Source of the DNA: Octopus sinensis
Taxonomy: Eukaryota
DNA: 64,000 nucleotides
Assembly: GCF_006345805.1 (NCBI RefSeq)
Contig: NC_043004.1
Coordinates: 62,434,001-62,498,000 of the forward strand
Direction of reading: 5' to 3'
Part shown: piece by piece, positions 5,850-61,919 of the stretch
How the letters are laid out: each line of letters starts with the position of its first letter
How positions within the stretch are numbered: the first letter of the stretch is position 1
Translations under genes and position numbers: made by a program
Notes under the pieces: generated by a model
Databases searched by the model: none
Told to the model about the DNA's origin: nothing
The model's input: only the letters and a program-made list of their open reading frames with translations

Positions 5850-6060
5850 TATATTTAAATATATGTGTGTGCGTCTTTGTTTGAGAGAGAGAGAGGGAGT
5901 GAGATAAAGAAAGAGAGACAGAGAGGGACGTGTACGAACATATTTAGGCATAGACACAATTACATGCACACACATATATTCACACAGACTGTGTTTTACT
6001 GACATGATTGTGTTCTATCAATAATATTGTTTTTGTAAAGAAAAAAAAAATATTTATACA

Positions 6061-6460
6061 GGCGCAGGAGTGGCTGTGTGGTAAGTAGCTTGCTAACCAA
6101 CCACATGGTTCCGGGTTCAGTCCCACTGTGTGGCACCTTGGGCAAGTGTCTTCTGCTATAGCCCCGGGCCGACCAATGCCTTGTGAGTGGATTTGGTTGA
6201 CGGAAACTGAAAGAAGCCTGTCGTATATATGTATATGTATATATGTATGTGTGTGTGTTTATGTGTCTGTGTTTGCCCCCCTAGCATTGCTTGACAACCG
6301 TGTGTTTACGTCCCTGTCACTTAGCGGTTCGGCAAAAGAGACCGATGCAATAAGTACTGGGCTTACAAAGAATAAGTCCCGGGGTCGATTTGCTCGACTA
6401 AAGGCCGTTCTCCAGCATCGCCGCAGTCAAATTACTGAAACAAGTAAAAAAGTAAAAGAG
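6061..6460 (+). mobile_element. SINE family A (tRNA head, CORE-like accttgggcaagt block, internal (TA)/(TG) microsatellite)
   Basis: A box tggctgtgtggt, B box ggttcagtcc, tail gcagtcaaattactgaaacaagtaaaa. Five well-conserved copies in the window. Confidence 0.9.
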
Positions 6461-10116: not shown

Positions 10117-10194
10117 TACTAACAAACATTTAAGCTTTGTGTGTGCACGGTCTCAGTCTGTTAACTTCAATATAAAAGAAATATAAATATGCTT

Positions 10195-10356
10195 GTCGCA
10201 GAAGTGGCTGTGTGGTAAGTAGATTGCTAACCAACCACATGGTTCCGGGTTCAGTCCCACTGCGTGGAACCTTGGGCAAGTGTCTTCTACTATAGCCTCG
10301 GGCCGACCAAAGCCTTGTGAGTGGAATTGGTAGACGGAAACTGAAAGAAGCCCGTC

Positions 10357-10395
<39 letters not shown>

Positions 10396-10605
10396 TGTGT
10401 GTTTGTGTGTCTGTATTTGTCCCCCTAGTATTGCTTGACAACCGATGCTGATGTATTTATGTCCCCGTTACTTAGCGGTTCGGCAAAAGAGACCGATAAA
10501 ATAAGTACTGGGCTTACAAAAGAATAAGTCCCGGGGTCGAGTTGCTCGATTAAAGGCGGTGCTCCAGCATGGCCGCAGTCAAATGACTGAAACAAGTAAA
10601 AGAGT
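10195..10605 (+). mobile_element. SINE family A
   Basis: Highly similar to 6061-6460 along its length. Confidence 0.9.
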
Positions 10606-11593
10606 ATTGGTCAATTTACTTATTTATATGTGTGTGTGTGGATGTGCATGGAGTGTTCCTTCAATACACTAAAAGCTAATTGGCTACCTGGTCTTAATTC
10701 CGGGCTGGGCTGTTCACTGAAATATTGTATGCAATGATTTTAATATAATTGTTCAATACATATATGTGTGTGTGTGTGTGTGTGTGTGTTGGTATTCGTC
10801 AAACAAATGTGGTATAATGCAACAAGACAACTTCTGCATTCATTGTGTTATGTCACATCACACAAAATACCGTTTTTATGTGCAGTGTAACTTGAGATTA
10901 ATAGGAAAATATTTTCTGAAAGAAAAAGGCAATCTCTTTGAGATATTTGGATGTAAGTGTAAACAAGTATAAAATAAAAAGTAGAGAGAGTAACGGATGT
11001 AGAAAATAGTGACATGGTAAGAAAAAGACAGTGAAAAGTGTGAGATAGGTCTGAGTTTAGTAGCAATATGAAAAAATTAGTGCAAAATTATATAGAATGA
11101 AAGGCATATCAGGTGAAGTGATGTACTAGCCATTATGCTGCTTATACAACAAAACATAAATCACACGAATTAGTTGAAGGTGGAAATTTTACGATATATA
11201 TAAATAATACTGACATTCATGACGCCATCATTTTTGTCTAGATGGTGGCAGTGAGAAAGATCAGAATATCTTTAATTTTTCATCGTTCTGACGTAGATAT
11301 CAAAGGAAATTTATTATACAACTGCACAGACATGCAAACGGATTCACAAACATAGATATGCACTTTTTTATGCACTTACGTATACACGTACATATTCATT
11401 TATGAATATGTGAATATATACACATATATTTGTGTGTATGATGTGCGCAAGGTGACGGCAGTAAATTTGCATTTAAAAGTAAAATTCGTTTGCCTTTAGT
11501 GTAACAAAACTGAAGTTCGTTTACATATACATCCATAGATACATACATACACACATACACTCACACACACACACACACACATACACACATACC

Positions 11594-16600: not shown

Positions 16601-17069
16601 ATTTCTTTACATACTTACATATATATGTGCGTGTTTGTGTATGTGTCTGTGTTTATATGCGTGTGTGCTTGTGTGCGTGCATTGATGTTTGCGCATTTTT
16701 GTGTTCTATCTAACTAAAATGAATTTCATTTATATTATGCTAATTACATATTACCAGAAAGACATTTGCAAAGTTTTCTCGTAGGAAATATTTAACAGTT
16801 GCAAATTTCTCATGAAAACAATAGAACTGCATTCGACCGGAAAAATATTCTGTAATGCAAACAATAGTGAAATTGTAAGTATAACCATGCGGTAACACAT
16901 TTATATATGTGAGTGCGTGTATCAATGCGTGGATATGTGTGTATATGTGTTACTGAAATGCTTGTGTGTGTATGTTTCCTTTTGTGTGTATACATGTATG
17001 AATTTTTGTCTGTGTATGCGTGTTTGAGCATGGATATGCATGCGTATTATATTAAATATTATACACATA

Positions 17070-17233
17070 GGCGCAGGAGTGGTTGTGTGGTAAGTAGCCT
17101 ACTTACCAACCACATGGTTCTGGGTTCAGTACCACTGCGTGACACCTTGGGCAAGTGTCATCTACTATAGCCTCGGGCCGACCAAGCCTTGTGAGTGGAT
17201 TTGGTAGACGGAAACTGAAAGTAGCCCGTCGTA

Positions 17234-17273
<40 letters not shown>

Positions 17274-17546
17274 GTGTGTGTGTGTGTGTGTGTGTGGTGT
17301 GTGTGTGTGTGTGTGTGTGTGCGTGTATGTTTGTGTGTCTGTGTTTATCTCCCTAGCATTGCTTGACAACCGATGCTGGTGTGTTTATGTCCCCGTCACT
17401 TAGCGGTTCGGCAAAACAGACCGATAGAATAAGTACTGGGCTTACAAAGAATAAGTCTCGGTGTCGAGTTGCTCGATTAAAGGCGGTACTCCAGCATGGC
17501 CGCAGTCAAATGACTGAAACAAGTAAAAGAGTAAAAGAGTAAAAGA
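17070..17546 (+). mobile_element. SINE family A
   Basis: Full-length copy ending in (gtaaaaga)x3. Confidence 0.9.
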
Positions 17547-19463: not shown

Positions 19464-19515
<52 letters not shown>

Positions 19516-19543
19516 AATAATCATAATAATAATAATAATAATA
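19180..19543. repeat. Compound (CTG/CTA)n-(TAG)n-(AAT)n microsatellite
   Basis: Direct reading. The (AAT)n part abuts the LINE at 19544. Confidence 0.9.
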
Positions 19544-20442
19544 AACTAAAAATAGAACAGCAACCAGCCATGATAAGACGATGGCAAGAAAAGCCCCTTC
19601 ATGGTAAATACTGCACTAAACTAAACGCAAAAGAAATAGACAAAGAAAAATCCCAGCAATGGTTGAGAAGCGCAGGACTCAAAGCAGAGACAGAGGGATT
19701 TTTAATTGCAGCACAAGACCAAAGCCTCCCCACCAGAAATTACCAAATACATGTAATGAAAAGAAATATTACAAGTAACTGCAGAATATGTGGAGATGGA
19801 CAAGAAACAATAAATCATATTATCTCTAGCTGCCCAGTCCTGGCTAAGAAGGAATATATTCACAGACATGACAGAGTTGGAACCTACATACATTGGAAGC
19901 TATGCCAACATTATGGAATAACAACAGAAAAAAGATGGTATAGGCACACACCAGAAAAGGTCACAGAAAACGAGAAAGCAACCATACTCTGGGATATGCC
20001 GATACACACAGATAGAGAAATTAAGGCCAACAGACCAGATATAGTTGTCAGAGATCATGAAGAAAAAAATGCTTTCTAATTGATGTATCAATACCGGCAG
20101 ATGACAACGTGTCTCTAAAAGAAATGGAGAAACTCTCAAAATACAAAGACCTGGAAATAGAGGTAACTAGAATGTGGAACCTGAAAACAGAAACAATTCC
20201 TATCATAGTAGGTGCATTAGGCATGATAAAAAAATATTCAGACAAATACATAACAAAAACACCAGGACTTACAAACACATATAACATACAGAAAATTGCA
20301 CTACTAGGCACTGCACACATCCTACGCAGAACACTTTCCATACAATAACCATCAGAGCATCACAACAAATCACAGCACATACCCAAGGCACACAGAGCTG
20401 CGCTCGGTAGTGAAATGGAAGCACGCTATAAAAATAAAACTA

Positions 20443-20445
<3 letters not shown>
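19544..20445 (+). mobile_element. 5'-truncated R4/Dong-like LINE (CCHC knuckle plus PD-(D/E)xK endonuclease) inserted in (AAT)n
   Basis: ORFs 19570-20079 (KPLHG, AAQDQ, CRIC..ETINHIISSC, RHD, NRPDIV) and 20109-20348 (KLSKYKDL, PIIVGALG) are separated by a frameshift in an A-run. (AAT)n lies on both sides. Confidence 0.92.
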
Positions 20446-20477
<32 letters not shown>

Positions 20478-20614
20478 ATGAAACCATTGATCATGTTGCC
20501 TCCATGTGCATTCTTCTTGCGCCTGAGTATCTTAACAGGCATAATAGAGCAGCCCAATATATTCACTGGGTAATTTCCAAAAAAACCAGGACCTTCGCCA
20601 TGATTCCTCTTGAA

Positions 20615-20987: not shown

Positions 20988-21370
20988 GGAGCACTCCGTC
21001 GGTTGCGACGATGAGGGTCCCAGCTGATACGATCAACGGAACAGCTTGCCCGTGAAATTAACGTGCAAGTGGCTGAGCACTCCACAGACACGTGTACCCT
21101 TAACGTAGTTCTCGAGGAGATTCAGCGTGACACAGATTGTGACAAGGCTGGCCCTTTGAAATACAGGTACAAGAGAAACAGGAAGAAAGAGTGACAGAAA
21201 GTTGTGGTGAAAGAGTACAGCAGGGTTCACCATCATCCCCTGCCGGAGCCTCGTAGAGCTTTAGGTGTTTTCGCTCAATAAACACTCACAATGCCCGGTC
21301 TTGGAATCGAAACCGCGATCCTCCGACCGTGAGTCCGCTGCCCTAACCACTGGGCCATTGCACCTCCACA
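20988..21370 (-). mobile_element. SINE family B with a 14-bp TSD
   Basis: Head gtggaggtgcaatggcccagtggttagggcagcggac...ggtttcgattcc. TSD ggtatgtagcaata at 20974-20987 and 21371-21384. Confidence 0.92.
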
Positions 21371-23359: not shown

Positions 23360-23655
23360 TCACCGTGACCAACCAGGTTATAAGATGTTGCTAAATATCG
23401 CTGGTCACAATGCGCTTTGCATTGTTTTAGCCTTCAAGTGACGCCACCCCGCTGGCTAAGCGAGCAGGTCAACATAACAAAGTGTGAGAGAAAAGTGTGG
23501 CGAAAGAGTACAGCAGGGATCGCCACCACCGGAGCATCATGGAGCTTTAGGTGTTTTCGCTCAATAAACGCCCACAACACCCGGTCTGGGAAGCGAAACC
23601 ACGATCCTACAACCGTGAGTCCGCTTCCCTAACCACTGGGCCATTGCGCCTCCAC
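23360..23655 (-). mobile_element. SINE with the family B head and an alternative 3' tail
   Basis: Shares the head through ctgctgtactcttt..ctctcac, then diverges to gcgcattgtgaccagcga...cctggttggtcacggtga. Confidence 0.85.
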
Positions 23656-23670
23656 TATATGTATATATAT

Positions 23671-23713
<43 letters not shown>

Positions 23714-23735
23714 ATATATATAATATATATATATT

Positions 23736-23768
<33 letters not shown>

Positions 23769-23849
23769 AGATATAATATATTTTTATATATATATATATA
23801 ATATATTTATATATATAATATATATATTATATATATATTATATATATAT

Positions 23850-23899
<50 letters not shown>

Positions 23900-24022
23900 A
23901 ATCAGGAACGGCCATAATAGGCCATTCACCCACTAGAAATAACAGCCAAAAAGCTTCAACCGCAAACAAAATAACATTAATTCTGTAAACCAGGAGAAAA
24001 TTAAAAAAACATTTACCCTGAA

Positions 24023-24129
24023 ATTCCTTATACGATGCACCGTTTCGTCTACTGTTTATGGGTAAACTAACCAGATTAAATTAAATCAAGCCAATCTACC
24101 ATAGGCCCTTAGATTCATCAGTAAGGAAT
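24023..24129 (-). ncRNA. Type I hammerhead ribozyme motif (GUA site)
   Basis: attcctta-CTGATGA-atcta..tagac-GAAAC-ggtgcatc-GTA-taaggaat. Perfect 8-bp helix I, near-palindromic helix III, A10.1-C11.1 mismatch. Confidence 0.85.
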
Positions 24130-24511
24130 AGCCAAATCGGAACAGATATTTTTCACGAGGCATTCACGTCCATGCCTCGCCAATATCTGACCTAAAATTT
24201 TCAAATCGTCGCACTCGCGCCAAATTTATCGGCAGCAAATAATATAAGCCGCCGATTCCATTACGGAACTAACCAGAAAATTCATAATTAATCAATATAG
24301 GGAGGCAAAAAAATTTTGTAGAATTCTTTTGCCCCCAGCGGCCTAGTGGGAAAAAATAAATATCATAAACCATTTTTAAGTTCAATATCACAATCAAGGA
24401 ACGGCCATAATAGGCCATTCACCCACTAGAAATAACAGCCAAAAAGCTTCAACCGCAAAATAACATTAATTCTGTAAACCAGGAGAAAATTAAAAAAACA
24501 TTTACCCTGAA

Positions 24512-24616
24512 ATTCCTTATATGATGCACCGTTTCGTCTACTGTTTAATGGTAAACTAACCAGATTAAATTAAATCAAGCCAATTACCATAGGCCTTAGA
24601 TTCATCAGTAAGGAAT
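24512..24616 (-). ncRNA. Second copy of the type I HHR (AUA site variant)
   Basis: Same as 24023-24129 except GTA>ATA and small indels in the helix II extension. Confidence 0.75.
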
Positions 24617-24672
24617 AGCCAAATCGGAACAGATATTTTTCACGAGGCATTCACGTCCATATATATATATAT

Positions 24673-24880
24673 GCCATGTTGAATCGCTAGCTTCTGCACG
24701 CATTTTTTTGTCTTTGTTTCTCTCCGTGTTTCTTTTCTGTGTATCTCTCTGTTGAAGAGCGTAGGCTCGAAACGTAAAAGACTTGTTTTATTTATATTCC
24801 TGAGCACCATACTAATATAATTGTTTGTTTGTACTCCATCTGCCTTCGTCTTTTGTTTATGTTCATAAAGCTTCCCGTTA
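24673..24880 (+). mobile_element. Short (TA)n-embedded element with a degenerate minimal HHR
   Basis: 24744-24781 reads tctct-CTGTTGA-a-gagc-gtag-gctc-GAAAC-GTA-aaaga (A6U). The downstream cctgagc..aatataattgtttg block resembles 54450-54660. Confidence 0.6.
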
Positions 24881-25069
24881 TATATATATCTATATATGAA
24901 TATAATCAAAAAGGGTAATAATATAGATTACTACCAATGTCCCAGCACAAAGGACGAATTAGTCATTAGACAAAATATTATTCATATACAAAAATATTAT
25001 TCATGTAGAAATATAATTAAGGGCTCCTAAATAAGGATGCCAAGTGCTAAGGACACAAAAAAGGGATAC

Positions 25070-25110
<41 letters not shown>

Positions 25111-26586: not shown

Positions 26587-26972
26587 AGTGGAGGCGCAAT
26601 GGTCGAGTGGTTAGGGCAGCGGACTCGCGGTCATAGGATCGCGGTTTCGATTCCCAGACCGGGCGTTGTGAGTGTTTATTGAGCGAAAACACCTAAAAGC
26701 TCCACGAGGCTCCGGCAGGGGATGGTGGTGATCCCTGCTGTACTCTTTCACCACAACTTTCACTCACTCTTACTTCCTGTTTCTGTTGTACCTGTATTTC
26801 AAGGGGCCGGCCTTGTCACTCTCTGTGTCACGCTGAATATCCCCGAGAACTACGTTAAGGGTGCACGTGTCGGTGGAGTGCTCAGCCACTTACACGTTAA
26901 TTTCACGAGCAGGCTGTTCCGTTGATTCGGATCAACCGGAACCCTCATCGTCGTAACCGACGGAGTGCTTCC
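26587..26972 (+). mobile_element. SINE family B with TSD
   Basis: Full-length copy. TSD actactc(g/a)tca at 26576-26586 and 26973-26983. Confidence 0.92.
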
Positions 26973-27172
26973 ACTACTCATCAGTGAATGAGAGTCGTTT
27001 TCTTGAGAAGCCAATGAAACATTTATTTCCTATATAAACTTATTGTCTTACTACACTATTTCAACTGTCGTGATTTGTATTTTTGCCATAACTCCACTTA
27101 TGTTTATAAATGTGTTTGCAAGAACTCAAGAAATCATTAAATATTACTCCATATTTCCGTGGATGTATTTAA

Positions 27173-27579
27173 CTCTCTTTTTACTCTCTTTTACTTGTTT
27201 CAGTCATTTTGACTGCGGCCATGCTGGAGCACCGCCTTTAGTCGAGCAAATCGACCCCGGGACTTATTCTTTGTAAGCCCAGTACTTATTCTATCGGTCT
27301 CTTTTGCCGAACCGCTAAGTGACGCGGACGTAAACACACCAGCATCGGTTGTCAAGCAATGCTAGGGGGACAAACACAGACACACAGACACACACATACA
27401 TATAAATATATATATATACATATATACGACAGGCTTCTTTCAGTTTCCGTCTACCAAATCCACTCACATGGTCGGCCCGGGGCTATAGCAGAAGACACTT
27501 GCCTAAGATGCTACGCAGTGGGACTGAACCCGGAACCATGTGGTTGGTTAGCAAGCTACTTACCACACAGCCACACCTG
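27173..27579 (-). mobile_element. SINE family A
   Basis: Reverse complement of the 6061-type element. Confidence 0.9.
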
Positions 27580-29378: not shown

Positions 29379-29459
29379 CATAATATATATCTATATGCAT
29401 ATATACATACATATATGTACATACTTACATATATATATGTATATACATATGCCTATATA

Positions 29460-29757
29460 GGCACAGAAGGTCACACAACGTAAAAAACATAAAATATGAA
29501 ATGCGAAAACACGGAATACGAACTTCTTTGCGAAGACCGAAAGAAACAGATGGAAAACAAGACAAGCAACATAACGAACGAGTCTTCATCAGTTGTCGGC
29601 TGTTTTTTTCAACTACGTATTTCGAGCAATTCATGATATTCGTAAATTGCTTGTTTTGTTTTCCATTTGTTTCATTCGTCGTTTGCAAATATAGTTCGTA
29701 ATCCATGTTTTCGCATTTCGTATTTCAACTTGTTTACGTCCTATGACATGCTGTGCC
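29460..29757. mobile_element. Foldback element with ~120-bp imperfect inverted arms in (TA)n
   Basis: 29460-29578 is the reverse complement of 29639-29757 (e.g. gaaatgcgaaaacacggaatacgaac). The spacer contains minus-strand GAAA and CTGATGA. Related to 59000-59340. Confidence 0.8.
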
Positions 29758-29935
29758 CACATATGCATATGTATATAATATATATGCAAGTATGTACATA
29801 TATGTACGTATATATGCATATATATATATACATACTCACACACATATATATACACACACACATTTATATTATTACATGATTGAACGCCACGCATACATTT
29901 CAAAGTTTTATATATATCTAACTATCTATATATGC

Positions 29936-29972
<37 letters not shown>

Positions 29973-31290
29973 ATTATATATATATATGTATGTATATATA
30001 TGTGTTGAGTGTGCATAGGTGTGGGCTTGTTGGTGTGCTTTTGTGTATTTATACATCCATATATATATGTACCTATTGGTATGTATATAGGTTTATTATA
30101 TAGTTGTGTATGTGTCTGTCTGCGCCCGTACTACTGACTCACCCTTTAATGCGTGCCTTAATTCTTAATCTGATATTGATCAGTGAAACTTTGGAGATCT
30201 TTCTATCTTACAAATTAGTAATTCTTATAAAATTTCTCAAGGGATGAACAAAAATAATTTACATTTCAAATTAGATTTATATAAATGTTCTTATTGAGCA
30301 TGTTGTACGTCTTCATCTTCCTTGTATATTCTCACCTGTCTGATCGATAAATTTAAATAAATTCCACTGAACAGAAGTCGTGCTAATTTTTAATAACATT
30401 AAGTCTTGAATTACAAAGTAGCGTTATTTAAAAATGAAAATTTGTTGTTTTTTTGCCCGAAGGAAATCTTATTTTCTTAAATCGTAATAGATTGTTATCG
30501 AGTAAGAGAAAATTTAAATAAATTATGGATATTTTAAGATGTAAAAGGTTCAATGTTATATCTCAGAGTAAATGACATTCTTATATGTAAAATACACTTT
30601 CTGTAAACTGCAATACATCCTTTGATGACAGAAAATATATGGTGGCCCATCCATCATCTCTGAGATATATTTTTATCAATTTTGCGAGCGTCGTATTTTA
30701 AGACTAAATAAAATTATGCCACCCTGAGGGCATTTCCGTTGAATGAATTTCAATGCTATCCTCGGGAAACACATAATATTCAGTGGGCAAGAGACAACCT
30801 GAAAACTAGTATAGAATATAGGACCTCAAAACTGATTTCAGTTTCCCAAATTTGAGTGTTTGCTTCTTAAGTATATCGGAAATCAGCATACTTAATAATA
30901 TGAGCATAATGCTAGAAGTAAATTATTGACCGCCAAGTACACCTGCATAGACAGGCAAACTCTCTGGTTGCGCTTATCTTCTATTTACTGCAATTCGTTG
31001 GTAGTTGGTTAATATGAATCTGGTAATATTCCAGAAACCAATCACCAAACCTACGTCTAAGATACATTAACGGCGGAAGCAGCATCCTGAATAGCGGGAT
31101 TTTCAGAAAAGTAAGAGTAGTGATGAGCGGTGAAAGTGCAGTTAAATATCTAGATATAGATACAGGAATAATTTAATTTGGATAGTCTGATCATTGCTTT
31201 TCTCATCAGGGACAGATTGAACATTAATAACAGTAAAAACAATTGTTAGTACTACGGTAAATTTGGGGGCGAAAGAAGTAAATGCTAATG

Positions 31291-31674
31291 TGGAAGCACT
31301 CCGTCGGCTACGACGACGTCGGTTCCGGTTGATCCGATCAATGGAACAGCCTGCTCGTGAAATTAACGTGTAAGTGGCTGAACACTCAACAGACACGTGT
31401 ACCCTTAACGTAGTTCTCGGGGATATTCAGCGTGACACAGAGAGTGACAAGGCCGGCCCTTTGAAATACAGGTACAACAGAAACAGGGAGTAAGAGTGAG
31501 AGAAAGTTGTGGTGAAAGAGTACAACAGGGATCACCATCATCTCTGCCGGAGCCTCGTGGAGCTTTTAGGTGTTTTCGCCCAATAAACAGTCACAATGCC
31601 AGGTCTGGGAATCGAAACCGCGATCCTACGACCACGAGTCCGCTGCCCTAACCACTGGGCCATTGCGCCTCCAC
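31291..31674 (-). mobile_element. SINE family B with TSD
   Basis: Full-length copy. TSD aaatgctaat at 31280-31289 and 31675-31684. Confidence 0.92.
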
Positions 31675-34048: not shown

Positions 34049-36218
34049 TTACTTTTAATCTGCATGGTTGATGCAATCACCTGCCGGGGCACACCCAGCG
34101 CCCTAGGGCAAGTGAAGGTTAAGAGTTGTTGAAATATAGCTGAAAGCTTGGGGAGGGGAAGTAGAGATATATCTCCATGTAATGCAAACACAAACATTTA
34201 CATTGATAGGGTTTTTCTAAGGATGTGGGCAGTACTTGTTAGCACAATCTTTTGGATTTCCTTGAGACATGGTTCTCCAGGGATATTGTCTAGGTGTTTC
34301 TGACATCCCTTTTTTATCATACCTAGGGCACCTACAATAACAGGAACAGTTTTTGTTTTAAGATTCCACATCCTCTGTATTTCGATTTCCAGGTCCTTAT
34401 ATTTACTAAGTTTGTCAAATTCCTTGACAGATACATTTTTATCAGTGGGGACGCTTACTTCTATTAGTCTGCAGGTATTTTCTTCCCTGTCTTTAACAAT
34501 TATGTCTGGTCGATTAGCCTTGATCGTTCTGTCAGTGTTGACTGGAAAATCCCTGAGGATGGTGACATCTTTACCTTCAACAACTGGCTGAGGATGGTGT
34601 TCATACCAGTTAGCAGGAGTGTCGGATTTGTAGTGTTTACATATCTTCCAATGTATATACTGTCCTACCCTATCATGGCGATTTTTGTATTCGTTTGGTG
34701 TCAGCACAGGACATCCCGAAACGAGATGGTCTATTGTTTCGTCAAATGTGTCACAGAATCTGCATTTAGGGTCAGTACCGTTTCGGAGAACGTTAGCCTG
34801 GTAATTTCTGGTAAACAAGCTTTGATCTTGTGCTGCCATTATGAAGCCTTCAGTCTCTGCTTTCAATCCAGAACTCTTCAGCCACTGATGGGTTGTTGCT
34901 TGGTCTACATCAGCATTTTGGCTTCGGAGAATGTATTGTCCATGCAGGGGCTTCTGGCTCTACCGCCTCTCAATTTGATTCTGCCCATTCTTTTTTGCAG
35001 TCTGCCTGATTCGCTTTGCTTGCTTGGTAGCAGTGGTTTCTGGCTCTTCACCTGATTCAAGGTTAATGCCTAGTTCCCTTTCGAACTTATAGGCTTCCTT
35101 GACAATAGAATGCAGCTTTTTGCTGCTTTCGTGTTCACACACAAGTCGCAGCATCCAGTCTTTTGTACTAGATAGGTACCTGTTCATTCCTACAGTAGAG
35201 GTCTTATAGCACAGCTCCAATTGCATCATTCCTCTCCCCCCGCTGCTTCTAGGTAGGTACAAGCGGTCTACATCTGCCTTAGGGTGGTGCATGCTCCTGG
35301 ATGTCAGTAACTTTCTTGTCTTCCTGTCCAAGCGTTGGAGTTCCGTAAGGTTCCAGTTAATGATGTTAAAACTGTACTGGACTACTGGAAGTGCCAGGGT
35401 GTTAATGACCTCAATGCAATTTTTGGAGTTGAGTTCAGTCTTCAGTACAAGCCTTATTCTCCTATAGTACTCCTTTCTTATTTTTTCCTTCCTAGTAGCA
35501 TGATGTATACCATCTCCTTCGTTGATTCCTAGGTATTTGTAACTTTCTTGTGGGTCAAGTTCCTTGATGGTAGTGTCAATATCTAATTTAACAGAAGCTG
35601 TTTGCCTGAGCTTGCCTCTTACAAAATTTGCTTTAGCACACTTATCAAGGCCAAAATCCATTCCGATATCATTGCTAAACTCTTTAACAGTTGTTAGCAG
35701 CCCTTCTAGCTCTTGGTCATTCTTGGCAAACAGCTTTAGATCGTCCATATAAAAAAGGTGGTTTATTAACTTGCTAAAAACTTTGTACCCATATCTGGCA
35801 CTATCCAATTCGTTTGAGAGTGGGATCAGTGCCATGCAAAAAAGTAGTGGAGAGAGGGAGTCACCTTGAAAGATGCCTCGTTTGATGTTGATGCTGTTGG
35901 ACTGGCTCATCCCATTACTATGGCTTAGAAAGAGACGTGTGTTCCACATGGTCATGCTATTCTCTAAGAATTTTGAGACGACAGGGGAGATCTTGAATAT
36001 CTCAAGGGCCTTGAGTATCCATTTATGTGGGACACTGTCATACGCTTTCCTGTAGTCTATCCATGCCATACTCAGGTTTTTGTTTTTGCTCCGGCAATTC
36101 TCTACAATCATTCTGTTTATGAGCAATTTGTCTTTGCACCCATAAGAGTTTCTTTTACAACCTTTTTGAGCTTGTGGAAGGATAGAATTTTGTTCAAGGA
36201 AAGCGTACATTATCTCCG
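34049..36218 (-). mobile_element. 5'-truncated R4/Dong-like non-LTR retrotransposon inserted in (AAT)n
   Basis: RT plus endonuclease reading frame and 3' UTR, with (ATT)n arrays at 33905-34048 and 36219-36274. Confidence 0.93.
34198..36218 (-). pseudogene. Reverse transcriptase / CCHC / restriction-like endonuclease ORF with one in-frame stop
   Basis: QKG, WIDYRKAYDSVPH, RGIFQGDSLSPLLF, HLFYMDDLKL, YKYLG, GGRG, CRFC..HLVSGC, RHD, NRPDII, KLSKYKDL. ORFs 34960-36273 and 34198-34866 are in the same frame, split by TAG at 34960-34962. Confidence 0.92.
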
Positions 36219-36274
36219 TTATTATTATTATTATTATTATCATTATTATTATGATTATTATTATTATTATCATT

Positions 36275-37702
36275 CAGTAGTTTTATTTTTATAGCGTGCT
36301 TTCACTTCACTACCGAGCGCAGCTCTGTGTGCCTTAGGTATGTGCTGTGATTTTTTGTGATGCTCTGATGGTTATTGTATGGAAGGTGTTCTGCGTAGGA
36401 TGTGTGCAGTGCCTAGTAGTGCAATTTTCTGTATGTTATATGTGTTTGTAAGTCCTAGTGTTTTTGTTATGTATTTGTCTGAATATTTTTTTATCATGCC
36501 TAATGCACCTACTATGATAGAAATTGTTTCTGTTTTCAGATTCCACATTCTGGTTACCTCTATTTCCAGGTCTTTGTATTTTGAAAGTTTCTCCATTTCT
36601 TTTAGAGACACGTTGTCATCTGCCGGTATTGATACATCAATTAGAAAGCATTTTCTTCTTCATGTTGGCCTTAATTTCTCTATCTGTGTGTATCGGCATA
36701 TCCCAGAGTATGGTTGCCTTCTCGTTTTCTGTGACCTTTTCTGGTGTGTGCCTATACCATCTTTTTTCTGTTGTTATTCTATAATTTTGGCATAGCTTCC
36801 AGTGTATGTAGGTTTCAACTTTGTCATGTCTGTGAATATATTCCTTCTTAACTAGGACTGGGCAGCCTGAGATAATATGATTTATTGTTTCTTGTCCATC
36901 TCAACATATTATGCAGTTACTTGTTATATTTCTTTTCATTACATGTTTTTGGTAATTTCTGGTGGGGAGGCTTTGGTCTTGTGCTGCAATTAAAAATCCC
37001 TCTGTCTCTGCTTTGAGTCCTGAGCTTCTCAACCATTGCTGGGATTTTTCTTTGTCTATTTCTTTTGCGTTTAGTTTAGTCCAGTATTTACCATGAAGTG
37101 GCTATCCTTGCCATCGTTTTATCATGGTTCGTTGCTGTTCTGTTTTTAGTTTGGGTTTCATTTGTTTTATAGCTTTTGTTGTTTCTTCATTTTCTTCTCC
37201 TTCCTCTTCATTAGGTGGTATGATTTCTTGTTTGTATTTGTCAGCTCCCTTAAATACTGAGAACAGTTTTTTTGTTTTGCTCGTGTTTTGCTGCTATTTG
37301 TATGAGTTTTCCTTCCTTCTGAAGTAGATATTTTTGCAGTCCTATGGTGGTTATTTTATAGTAGTTTTCCAGCTGTATAAGGCCTCTACCACCTTCTATA
37401 CGTTGTATATATAGTATTTCTTTGTCAGATTTTGGGTGATGCATCCTAGACCCTGTCATTATTTTTCTTGTTTTCCTATCTATTCTGGTCAGGTCACTTA
37501 GTGTCCAGTTAAGGATATTGTAGCTGTAACTTATAACTGGGACAGCTAAAGTGTTAATACCTATTATCTTGTTTTTAGCATTGAGCTCTGGTTTTAGTAT
37601 TGATCTAACTCGTCTATAATATTCTTCTTTTATTTTCTCTTTCATTTGTGTGTGTTGTGTCTTATCTACTTCATGGATTCCTAAGTATTTGTAAGTTTGG
37701 CT
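36275..37702 (-). mobile_element. 5'-truncated R4/Dong-like LINE, same subfamily as 19544-20445
   Basis: Near-identical 3' region and terminus aaaataaaactactg. YKYLG..GGRG in ORF 37250-37924. A ~25-bp deletion near 36663 removes the RPD motif. Confidence 0.92.
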
Positions 37703-37727
37703 ATTATTATTATTATTATTATTAATA

Positions 37728-37820
<93 letters not shown>

Positions 37821-37835
37821 TTAATAATAATAATA
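37703..37835. repeat. (ATT)n switching to (AAT)n, a palindromic microsatellite
   Basis: The orientation flips at 37777/37778. Confidence 0.92.
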
Positions 37836-39110
37836 GGGGTGTTGAAATGATGACGGCAATTCAATCTCAATCCAGTAATAAATACTTGGGAATACTGGAG
37901 GCAGATGGAATTAAACAGCGACATTAACGAAGATGGTATCTTCGGCGAATGAGATAGGTACTGGTGAATGTCAGAACCATAATTTCGGCAATGAGTTCGT
38001 GCGCTACGGCAATAGTTCCCTATGACACTGGGATCCTGAAGTGGAGAGAGGAGGAGCTAAATGAGGGTGACAGGAATTCAAGAAGGCTGCTAAGGATGCA
38101 TGGAGCCCAGTATACACGTGCAGGCAATGATGGGTAATTCATGAAGTGGACAGTAACATGTGTGGAAGACTGCATACGTATTGAAATCGAGAGCTTAATG
38201 GGATACCTATCCCTATGTAAGGAAACCTTTCTAACGTTAGTTAGGAACGATGGAGTATTGAAGCAGAGAAAAATGGAAAAAGGAAAGAAGTGCAAAATGT
38301 ACACGAAGAAGAATTACGCAACAAAGAACTATACAATGAATTCCATGTAGCACAACAGAATTTGCTGGGAAAATATGTGGGATTGGTTGAAGAAAGAAAC
38401 ACCGAGAGGACTAGACTGGAGTGTCGACCTTTGGAATGAGCAAGTTATTCTGCTGTACCGCATCTGTACCAAAGTGAGCGAAACCATTGCCCATATCACA
38501 ACCGAATGCCCAAAACTAGCTCAAAACCATTACAAGTTGTGGTGACATGATCAGGTAACGAAGGTGTTACACTGGGGAGTGTGCAAAAGGTGAGGCATAA
38601 AAAGAGGCAAGATGTGTATGAGCACAAATCGCAGAGTGTCAGAGTCGGAAGCTATCAAACATCTCTGGTAAAATCTAGCAAAATCCATATAGATCAGGTT
38701 CTCGAGCATAACAGACCGGACCTAGTGGTGGTGGACAGAGTGCATTATATGTTCTATATAGTACATGTCGCACGCCCCTCTGATCCTCGAATAATCAAGA
38801 AGGAAAGCGAAATAGTAGATAACTGCAACCCCTTTCAGTACAAAATAGCCTGGCCATGGAAAGACATTGAGGAAGGAGCAAATTATCGTTGGGTCTTTGG
38901 GAACAGTATAAGACGGTATCAAATGGAATATAAAGGAAATTCGAATGTAGACCTGTTACTAAAATTTTGCCTCCTTGGTACGGCCAGAATAATCTGGCAA
39001 GTATTAGATAGCCGAAAAGAAAGAATAGCATGGTATCGTAGGTTGTAGATAGTAATCCCTCTACGCATACAAGTTTCCAGGATTTCCAAAGCAAAATTTG
39101 TGCGATAAAA
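37836..39110 (+). mobile_element. Old, decayed R4/Dong-like LINE, third subfamily
   Basis: KYLGILEADGIK, ETIAHITTECPKLA, EHNRPDLVVVD, CLLGTARII, with many stops and frameshifts. Confidence 0.82.
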
Positions 39111-57579: not shown

Positions 57580-58587
57580 ATATATTTATATATATTTGTA
57601 CATGCATGCATATATGGGTAAAAGACGTCACCAACGGTGCAAATATATTCAAATGCGTGAACAAACGAGGACAGAACGAGTGAAATACGTAAACAACAGG
57701 GAGAAAATAGAGAACACAAGTAAACAGAGAAAAAGTCTATTTCAAATGATATTCAGATATATTTCTGTCATCACAGGTGGAGTGTCGATATATATGCATA
57801 CATATCAACATAGTGATTTGTTTCAAGGATGTATTGTGTGTTTGGTACACAAATATGTATATATATATATATATATACGTACGTTTTCTTTACATCTATA
57901 TGGTTATACGTGTTAATCACTCCATAAAAACCTGTTACATGTCTCTCAACAAAATTATTACGGAGCTATTGAGTGAGAAATAAAATATACTCGAAACCAC
58001 ATTCTTAGTGAACCGAAAGTCTTTAACGTTAAACAAAAATAAATAATATATAACTGTTTGGTTCACACGAGCCTTGCACGACAATATGAATCGTCAAAGA
58101 CAGCTGCTCCCATAGATTCTAAAATAAAATTTTGGATTTATAAAACGTCAATGCTAGGAAGGAAAAAATTACGATAGAGACATGCAAGGAAACAGAACGA
58201 AAACATATATCGAGAGTGGTTAGATAAGATCGAGAAAAAATAGTGAGCTCCTGGGAGAAACATGTTTTTGAAAAGAGAAGTGATAGAAAAGAGAGCGAAA
58301 AAAACGTCTGTTCATTTTAAACGGCTATGCAAGAAAATAAAGACAGTCATGTGAGGAAAAGAAAGATGGACAACGTTTACGTATGAGCAACGAGAGAGCG
58401 AGAGAGAGACAGGGAGAAAAGAGGGGACGAGGAGACGAGGAGAGGCAAGAAGTGACAGAAAACGGTGAATAAGGGATAAGGAGTAAAATGGAATTAGAAA
58501 AAGATGACGGAAGAAAACAGTATAGAGTAGAGTGGCACCAAAAAAGGTGAAGATAAACTGACGTGGAAATGTATGCGCTGCGTTCAG

Positions 58588-58619
<32 letters not shown>

Positions 58620-58682
58620 TATATATATGTATATATATATATACATACATATATACATACATATATACATACATACATATAC

Positions 58683-58726
<44 letters not shown>

Positions 58727-58999
58727 ATATTATTTATATATTTGATTGAAAGCCACGCATCCATTTGCAAATAAATTTATCTTAATCCCTTGATTCGATT
58801 CTACCCTATATTATTTTCTCTCTGAATCTCTCTCCTTCTCTAATTACTTTTTCTCCCCTTCAACGTTGTCTATCTCTCTCTTCCTCTTTCTCCTTTACAT
58901 TCTCTCGTTGCTCACTCGTGACCATCTTTTTTTCCTCACGTGGTCATCTTTCTTTTCTTTCAGGACTGTTCTAAAGACTGAACGTATCTTGTCTCTCTC

Positions 59000-59340
59000 T
59001 TCTATCTTTTTTCTTGTCAAGGAAAATATTTCTCCTGCGTTCTGGTCTCATCGTCGTTCTGGTCACACGTCCCTCCGTGTTTGGTTTGGTCTGTTTCCTT
59101 TTATGTCTCCACTATCCTATTTTTGTTTGCAAATTTGACCCTCCAAAAATTCCAAATTTTATTTTGGTATTTATGGAAGCAACTGTCTTCGAAGTCTCAT
59201 ATTGTTGTCCAGTGCTCGAAATGAGGAGTAGAGAGACAGCCGACAACTGACAAAGGGATTTTCTTTATATTAACTATCCTGTTTTCCACTTGTTTCTTTC
59301 TTTGTTTGCCTATTGACTGTTGGTAATATCTTGTACCCAT
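59000..59340 (+). mobile_element. (TA)n-tailed element of the same family as the 29460 foldback
   Basis: Shares gctcgaaat..cagccgacaactga(c/t)(a/g)aag and tgttttcca..tgtttctttc. Ends tgtaccca(TA)n. The left boundary is uncertain. Confidence 0.6.
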
Positions 59341-59529: not shown

Positions 59530-59701
59530 CAGTGTACATTTAAACACATAAGAGGTTCCCATGATAGGATTCCTTGCACGCTAGAGAGGACAGTTAAATT
59601 CCAAACCACTGTCCCTAAATAGTGGTTTGGAATTTGAATTTCCTCTCTAGCCTGCAAGTAATCCTATGACGGAAACCTCTTATGTGTTTAAATGTACACT
59701 G
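59530..59701. mobile_element. Near-perfect 172-bp foldback MITE
   Basis: cagtgtacatttaaacacataagaggtt...aattccaaaccact [short loop] agtggtttggaatt...aacctcttatgtgtttaaatgtacactg. Confidence 0.85.
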
Positions 59702-61352: not shown

Positions 61353-61909
<557 letters not shown>

Positions 61910-61919
61910 ATATATATAT

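Follow-up and report, generated by a model that had tools for sequence, protein, structure and literature searches.

The 764-nt insert at positions 24660–23897 on the minus strand of the analysed window, a 64,000-nt stretch of the Octopus sinensis genome (NC_043004.1), is best explained as a non-LTR retrozyme. As such, it would be a non-autonomous derivative of Penelope that a Penelope-type enzyme has mobilised, probably via an RNA circle. We assign a probability of about 70% to this reading. The element is of a kind already described, the animal non-LTR retrozymes, with an atypical hammerhead. Its 489-nt unit is an abundant, multi-copy dispersed family. The single locus is ordinary, with slight decay of this copy and nothing that points to a function for the host. 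The original prediction had offered two alternatives, a retrozyme derived from a circular RNA and a partial tandem of the pLTR type, which probably are one and the same thing. The retrozyme or pLTR reading is upheld by the abundance of the family and by DNA contigs that cross its head-to-tail junction.

The insert comprises 1.56 units of a repeat of about 489 nt, forms a partial tandem and has (TA)n at both ends. Its two terminal direct repeats of 276 nt are 96.4% identical and differ at seven places (three substitutions and four indels), with private changes in each. The upstream, 5′ repeat (24389–24660, minus strand), delimited from the sequence and the family states, is the privately decayed pLTR-like copy 1. 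The downstream, 3′ repeat (23897–24173, minus strand) is pLTR-like copy 2, the hammerhead of which shows the family state at the cut site and at two helix II indels. Between them lies a single-copy, hairpin-rich, non-coding segment (24174–24388, minus strand). Both repeats carry identical minority alleles at 24473, 24510 and 24515, as is expected if one template unit was copied twice and the copies decayed afterwards. The monomer between the predicted cut sites (24031–24519, minus strand) is 489 nt long with a G + C content of 36.8%.

On the 3′ side, the insert ends 134 nt past the last predicted cut site (tail 23897–24030, minus strand) in a (TA)n target array of about 125 units (23656–23896). 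A 4-nt overlap with the target (ATAT) perhaps extends this end to 23893. On the 5′ side, a short (AT)n stretch (24660–24673) shares the first 2 nt of the element; this 2-nt AT overlap coincides with the final 2 nt in the 5′ arm of a perfect 8-bp hairpin. The element had been described as a monomer between the two cut sites; both sites stand, but the insert was corrected to 1.56 units in a (TA)n target. Since its ends and the predicted cut sites do not coincide, a cleaved linear monomer is excluded as the template, which was either a circle or an uncleaved tandem transcript. Self-BLAST found no second copy of the element elsewhere in the window, and TRF reported only TA arrays and a 19-mer for the window, leaving out the 489-nt repeat. 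LTR ends, a PBS, a PPT or a 4-bp target site duplication (TSD) were not seen by inspection, a TSD being unreadable in (TA)n.

Both repeats contain a hammerhead ribozyme (HHR) motif of type I topology (CUGANGA...GAAA...UH, three helices, helix I open), and the strand is fixed by the hammerhead itself. Each comprises a complete core, an 8-bp helix I, a helix II arm of 66–68 nt and a palindromic helix III. The upstream hammerhead (24512–24616, minus strand) consists of helix I (24616–24609/24519–24512), the core CUGAUGA (24608–24602), A10.1 (24601), C11.1 (24536) and GAAA (24535–24532), and has an AUA site with the predicted cut at 24520/24519. In the downstream hammerhead (24023–24129, minus strand), helix I (24129–24122/24030–24023) and the core CUGAUGA (24121–24115) are followed by the helix II arm (24114–24047, 68 nt), GAAA (24046–24043) and a GUA site with the predicted cut at 24031/24030. 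The 12-nt, self-complementary helix III (24032–24043, minus strand) is also complementary to the core with its 3′ half, a predicted lock. The predicted cut sites are spaced by 489 nt, and the coordinates and motifs of the two minus-strand hammerheads were thus correct in the original prediction.

A descriptor requiring the 8-bp helix I and a 4-bp helix II recovered these two sites only in the window and none in 150 first-order Markov resamples of it. When helix III was added as a requirement, the downstream copy was retained and the upstream copy was lost. Rfam yielded no match at the gathering score for the window, and the 15 weak matches up to an E-value of 10 included no hammerhead family, which is probably due to the 66–68-nt helix II arm. 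The canonical G10.1–C11.1 pair and the short helix II of about 4 bp are absent. Two reservations made at the outset were borne out, namely the A10.1–C11.1 mismatch in both copies and the AUA site in the upstream copy. The upstream hammerhead shows a C15.2–A16.2 mismatch next to the cut site and two 1-nt deletions, all private; the 15.2–16.2 pair is intact in the downstream hammerhead and in the family (99.6–100% G). From these changes, the upstream ribozyme of this copy is predicted to be damaged. Efficient cutting at the locus is therefore likely at 24031/24030 alone, the downstream site, and, given the mismatch and the deletions, the locus is unlikely to be the source of a circle.

The linear monomer was found to fold at − 147.5 kcal/mol on the minus strand (z = − 4.93), with none of 100 shuffles as good, and the circular minimum is − 143.5 kcal/mol (z = − 5.5, 40 shuffles). 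Its paired fraction of 0.62 does not differ from that of the shuffles (0.63). The plus strand yields an equal z-score (− 4.91), hence the folding energy does not pick the strand. The hairpins named beforehand are present in the predicted fold: a 15-bp hairpin with two G-U pairs (24301–24336), a 9-bp hairpin with one G-U pair (24228–24256) and a nested hairpin (24143–24189) with a perfect 8-bp inner stem (24179–24172/24163–24156), all on the minus strand. In the four strongest strand-neutral hairpins, read on the minus strand, 36 pairs are Watson–Crick and the other four are all G-U, compared to 97/375 non-Watson–Crick pairs in 200 shuffles (p about 0.005, post hoc), which supports an RNA-type structure. 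The same asymmetry had been put forward as independent evidence of the strand and was rejected in this role: with an expected share of 0.71, a G-U to A-C ratio of 4:0 rests on too few pairs (p about 0.26), and both strands give equal z-scores.

The original prediction saw no ORF in the unit; the longest ATG ORF on either strand is 49 aa when read round the circle. This ORF (24418–24269, minus strand) was rejected as coding, since a 1-nt insertion at 24362 is present in 77–100% of the family depth. A 34-nt mini-intron after the cut site (GT at 24505, AG at 24473–24472) was likewise rejected, the A at 24473 being changed in 84–100% of the family depth.

Ribozyme folding was predicted without tertiary contacts. 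Helix III as a hairpin reaches only − 0.2 kcal/mol, compared to − 17.5 kcal/mol as a duplex of two downstream copies and − 14.9 kcal/mol for the mixed pair. For the 764-nt transcript, the dimeric double hammerhead was calculated at − 219.0 kcal/mol and two monomeric hammerheads at − 209.5 kcal/mol, with an unconstrained minimum of − 223.9 kcal/mol. The dimeric conformer is thus favoured by 9.5 kcal/mol in silico, in keeping with the expectation that the palindromic helix III permits a dimeric hammerhead. Helix I is predicted to pair across the copies with a probability of 0.5–0.7, and the C15.2–A16.2 mismatch of the upstream copy remains in the dimer. For the monomer circle, a fold in which the 3′ half of helix III occupies the core UGAUG is predicted to be more stable than the active fold by 3.9 kcal/mol; such a lock could protect a circle against re-cutting. 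The predicted cost of the active monomeric fold is 9.4 kcal/mol for the upstream copy versus 3.9 kcal/mol for the downstream copy. Active folds lie 3.9–4.9 kcal/mol above the predicted minimum.

The search of public sequencing runs listed 21 runs from 11 studies, assigned to organism labels A–F and a feces metagenome. Part of the element is contained in 20 of the 21 runs, and three contain at least half of its words; the runs X14–X20 (shares of 0.13–0.23; organisms A, C, D, E and F and the feces metagenome) provide no evidence of host range. Four of the 21 runs, each consisting of contigs, were aligned to the non-redundant stretch 24174–25050 at 80% likeness, flanking repeats included, which placed 22,836 (X1), 28,644 (X2), 198 (X9) and 2,456 (X18) contigs. 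All 30 bins of this region are covered in the four runs. The summed depth over the element is about 2 × 10^5 to 1.3 × 10^6 in X1 and 6 × 10^5 to 4.7 × 10^6 in X2, the shallowest listed contigs having depths of tens; these values are not copy numbers. X9 and X18 are presumed to be RNA runs, and contig depth is a measure of neither expression nor copy number. Relative to the neighbouring repeat, the depth of the element is lower in these two runs than in the DNA runs, a value unusable for expression. Exact-motif scans for the element found no locus in metagenome contigs, prokaryote genomes and viral contigs, and that for the neighbouring repeat found none in metagenome contigs.

The head-to-tail junction (24660 to 24174) was observed in nine contigs of X2 and one contig of X9, i.e. 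in independent public runs under two organism labels. In X1, the junction is seen as a loose end (three contigs), and X18 has a variant form of it. Further contigs span 24388/24389, the 3′ end point of the insert (records 25 and 26 of X9). With contigs across both joints, the unit closes on itself in DNA at 487–489 nt.

Family variants were taken from 40 of 89 substitution rows. The cut triplet of the family is GUA (99.6–100% of the depth at 24522), with GUC variants at 2–33%; hence the upstream AUA of this locus is private decay. Mutated cores in the other copies, named beforehand as an outcome that would speak against the retrozyme reading, were not found, the family keeping GUA or GUC. Position 11.1 is U in 61, 38, 13 and 98% of the depth in X1, X2, X9 and X18, respectively, giving A10.1–U11.1. 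Two adjacent changes in loop III occur at equal depth (17.4 each in X9, 991.8 each in X18) and keep the palindrome; their share is 13% in X9, 37% in X18 and below 0.3% in X1 and X2. Both 1-nt insertions that the downstream copy has in helix II are among the family variants listed. Two further variants speak against a fully conserved ribozyme, as they would introduce mismatches unless the partner has also changed, as read from the 40 of 89 rows listed: that at 24515 (52–98%) gives C-A in helix I pair 5 unless 24613 compensates, and that at 24540 (13–38%) affects helix II pair 4. In two records (record 3 of X1 and record 28 of X9), only the hammerhead region matches (86–90%), followed by other sequence. 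These are sister families, or possibly a coding helper element.

The insertion shows the signature of Penelope-like elements, namely a partial tandem (pLTR), a hammerhead near the 3′ end and a (TA)n target. Penelope-like insertions are described as 5′-truncated partial tandems, and (TA)n is preferred by Naiad and hypothesised as a target for Neptune (PMC8557442). In the anole Penelope, reverse transcription begins internally downstream of the hammerhead, 111–118 nt into the ORF compared to a hammerhead cut at + 26, and AT-rich DNA is cut (PMC11167929). A circular template was proposed for copying beyond unit length (PMC4209133), and animal retrozymes were related to pLTRs and argued to be non-autonomous Penelope derivatives in a preprint (Li, Clavereau and Pollet 2026; 10.64898/2026.07.22.740005). 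Penelope-like elements account for 6.83% of the genome in O. vulgaris and include families with recent activity (PMC13282606), and are abundant in octopus also according to PMC8967140; ribozymes are not mentioned in the available parts of these two papers. An ORF with RT and GIY-YIG domains was not detected by Pfam in the 20 ORFs of at least 120 aa and 150 of the 161 ORFs of 66–119 aa, the other 11 being located more than 12 kb from the element. Linked Penelope ORFs, which the original prediction had suggested as a target of a genome search, are therefore lacking among the 170 ORFs of the window searched; the only RT among them is of the LINE type (34963–36273).

For the retrozyme reading, the following course is suggested. 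Read-through transcripts of tandem copies would self-cleave, probably as a dimeric hammerhead via the 12-nt palindromic helix III predicted here. By analogy with published retrozymes, a ligase of the host such as RtcB would circularise the monomer of about 489 nt, for which the lock of the core by helix III (3′ half) is predicted at 3.9 kcal/mol below the active fold. A Penelope RT-endonuclease, the presumed enzyme, would nick (TA)n and begin copying 134 nt past the cut site, where the ATAT overlap lies. It would then have copied 1.56 units and joined them at the 2-nt AT overlap, the ends being those observed. The two repeats would decay independently, and the locus would then probably cut well only at its downstream site.

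In another account, which we regard as unlikely, a non-autonomous Penelope derivative moves from a linear read-through tandem RNA without the need for a circle, and its hammerhead, weak or assisted by protein, is a passenger. The insert ends bear no relation to the cut sites, which is compatible with an uncleaved linear tandem and with a circle alike. Work on the anole Penelope in vitro points in the same direction: uncleaved RNA is used and the start site is not homologous to the target (PMC11167929). There, the hammerhead is dispensable, mutants insert normally and no reads end at the cut site. Only one of nine Xenopus retrozyme dimers was cleaved, eight remaining without cleavage (10.64898/2026.07.22.740005). 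The predicted ground state locks the core, A10.1 is non-canonical and no exceptional depth was found in the two presumed RNA runs, in which contig depth cannot measure abundance. Against a linear template stands the family itself, which keeps a cleavable GUA or GUC and a palindromic helix III, including a double change that preserves the palindrome; this implies selection on the ribozyme. In addition, the whole unit is structured, with G-U pairs, and retrozymes of like architecture form circles in coral, mussel and axolotl (PMC7229834).

The insert could also come from a Penelope-like element that is autonomous and coding and has a long pLTR or UTR, as its 5′-truncated end, the repeat being no more than the partial tandem of that element; we consider this improbable. 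A hammerhead near the 3′ end, a partial tandem, (TA)n and a head-to-head neighbour are typical of Penelope insertions, and the contigs that match only in the hammerhead region (86–90%) indicate that relatives with other bodies exist. However, the listed continuation at 24660 in X1, X2 and X9 is the start of the 489-nt unit, without an ORF, and this unit closes on itself at 487–489 nt with no ORF over 49 aa. Records running into unlike sequence have a share of 0 in X1, X2 and X18 and of 0.14 in X9. Single-copy and hammerhead segments are of the same order of depth, a weak argument as depth is unsuited to ranking parts. Finally, a local tandem duplication, an assembly artefact or a DNA-level satellite with chance hairpins, as the 96% identity of the repeats and the repeat-rich, hard-to-assemble region might suggest, is very improbable in view of the seven differences with private changes in each repeat, the junction in independent runs under two labels and the non-Watson–Crick pairs that are all G-U, and an assembly artefact, which the original prediction had raised, is refuted by the junction contigs in public DNA runs, silent as these are on RNA circles.

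The non-LTR retrozyme reading can be compared with known systems. Animal non-LTR retrozymes form circles in coral, mussel and axolotl, and cleavage of dimers as well as RtcB ligation in vitro were reported (PMC7229834, Cervera and de la Peña 2020). The element shares with them the type I hammerhead, head-to-tail non-coding units, a G + C content below 50%, a structured monomer and a palindromic helix III that allows dimeric cleavage. A non-canonical base in helix II is tolerated in axolotl HHR_Amex2, which has U-U and still cleaves. Differences from the animal retrozymes of the same paper are the unit length (489 nt compared to 150–450 nt), the helix II arm of 66–68 nt with A10.1–C/U11.1 and the occurrence as a dispersed 1.56-mer in (TA)n. 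A self-locked core is predicted for its circle; for animal retrozyme circles the prediction is mostly a free one, with the exception of some from mussel (PMC7229834).

The unit falls within the range of 51–972 bp given by Li et al. (2026), and a pLTR-like architecture and dispersed low-multimer copies are further points in common with their elements. None of the 35 species of that survey is a mollusc, and its pipeline relies on a TRF tandem and complete hammerheads in two units, while TRF is silent here. Their definition of an 'active' retrozyme does not apply to the locus, as distinct from the family, with TRF silent and copy 1 failing at helix III. A helix II of this length is probably beyond the reach of the descriptors used there (10.64898/2026.07.22.740005). 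A report of the 489-nt family was not found in the accessible literature on cephalopod or octopus ribozymes or on non-autonomous Penelope elements; a prior mention in supplements, Repbase or Dfam is possible.

With Penelope pLTRs that carry hammerheads (PMC4209133, PMC8557442, PMC11167929), the element has in common the partial tandem, the 5′ truncation, a hammerhead about 100–130 nt from the 3′ end and an AT-rich or (TA)n target without a clear TSD. In contrast to these elements, it lacks an RT/GIY-YIG ORF, and its hammerhead is non-minimal, with 8 bp in helix I, 12 nt in helix III and an extended helix II, and without G10.1–C11.1. The pDo500 satellite of Dolichopoda cave crickets also has a unit of about 500 bp with an embedded hammerhead; single and double hammerhead cleavage were proposed for it, with compensatory changes at 10.1–11.1 (PMC2837043). 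Compared by description, pDo500 is a satellite array with a compact 49-nt hammerhead, whereas the present element is a dispersed insertion with a hammerhead of about 107 nt. Plant LTR retrozymes likewise have a non-coding middle between two hammerhead-bearing direct repeats of about 300 nt and a ribozyme predicted to be blocked in the circle (PMC7761336, 10.64898/2026.07.22.740005), a likeness that follows from the partial tandem. They differ in having a type III hammerhead instead of type I, a 4-bp TSD and a repeat end of CA. A PBS- or PPT-like tract is a further difference, none being seen here by inspection.

A more far-reaching proposal is tentative and, in our estimate, rather doubtful: an abundant, expressed retrozyme family in several related, probably cephalopod species, built on the atypical hammerhead with A10.1 and the 66–68-nt helix II, whose palindromic helix III acts as a switch (circle locked, tandem active), and inserting into (TA)n with a Penelope-type 3′ end. 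If true, a microsatellite-targeting Penelope clade would be the enzyme mobilising retrozyme circles, and hammerhead censuses would miss a long-arm class in animal genomes. As neither Rfam nor TRF picks up the long-arm hammerhead, families of this kind may be undercounted. A family with very many young copies in a simple (TA)n target would allow both the enzyme behind the mobility of animal retrozymes and the role of the circle as a template to be tested from the genome alone, via the position of the 3′ end, the length distribution above one unit and the identity of the repeats within a copy.

The neighbouring head-to-head repeat (24674–24880, plus strand) is a 207-nt piece of a different, very abundant family with a minimal-hammerhead fold, even more abundant than the 489-nt unit. 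Its core is located at 24749–24755, with U at position 6, GAAA at 24769–24772 and a predicted cut after 24776 on the plus strand. The repeat ends about 104 nt after its own predicted cut site in (TA)n, the same geometry as in the main insert. The microsatellite was apparently struck repeatedly by Penelope-type elements. The neighbouring hammerhead shows an unpaired A before a helix II with G10.1–C11.1, a CG loop III and U instead of A at core position 6. In its family, helix I is complete again through 24747 C>T (about 99% of the depth), and as T>A at 24752 is absent among the 40 of 89 rows listed, U6 may be the family state. The loose ends at 24748 and 24784, among those listed, point to a 37-nt core as the only part that many families have in common. 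A third multi-copy fragment with a 19-nt minisatellite (24895–25070) lies between two (TA)n runs and is covered in all four runs.

ARAGORN found no genes in the window, and a bacterial promoter scan was also uninformative. A SINE-like family with a tRNA-like head, which we take to resemble octopus SINEs, has a copy at 23361–23656 (minus strand) adjoining the long (TA)n and relatives at 20990–21369, 26588–26974 and 31290–31674, the copies being 84–94% identical to each other. A second interspersed family of about 400 nt has five copies (6050–6457, 10174–10606, 17054–17539, 27163–27579 and 61479–61917). Self-BLAST further detected self-inverted repeats of MITE-like or foldback type at 58068–59218, 29384–29830 and 59530–59701. 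A broken LINE-type retroelement occupies 34198–38056 (minus strand) and 19465–20481, with RVT_1 at 34963–36273 and zf-RVT at 34201–34959 and 19465–20076. The best relatives of its RT are about 70% identical and include a shrimp protein, the best named match in the protein search; for hosts so far apart, such an identity is high, and horizontal transfer may be behind it.
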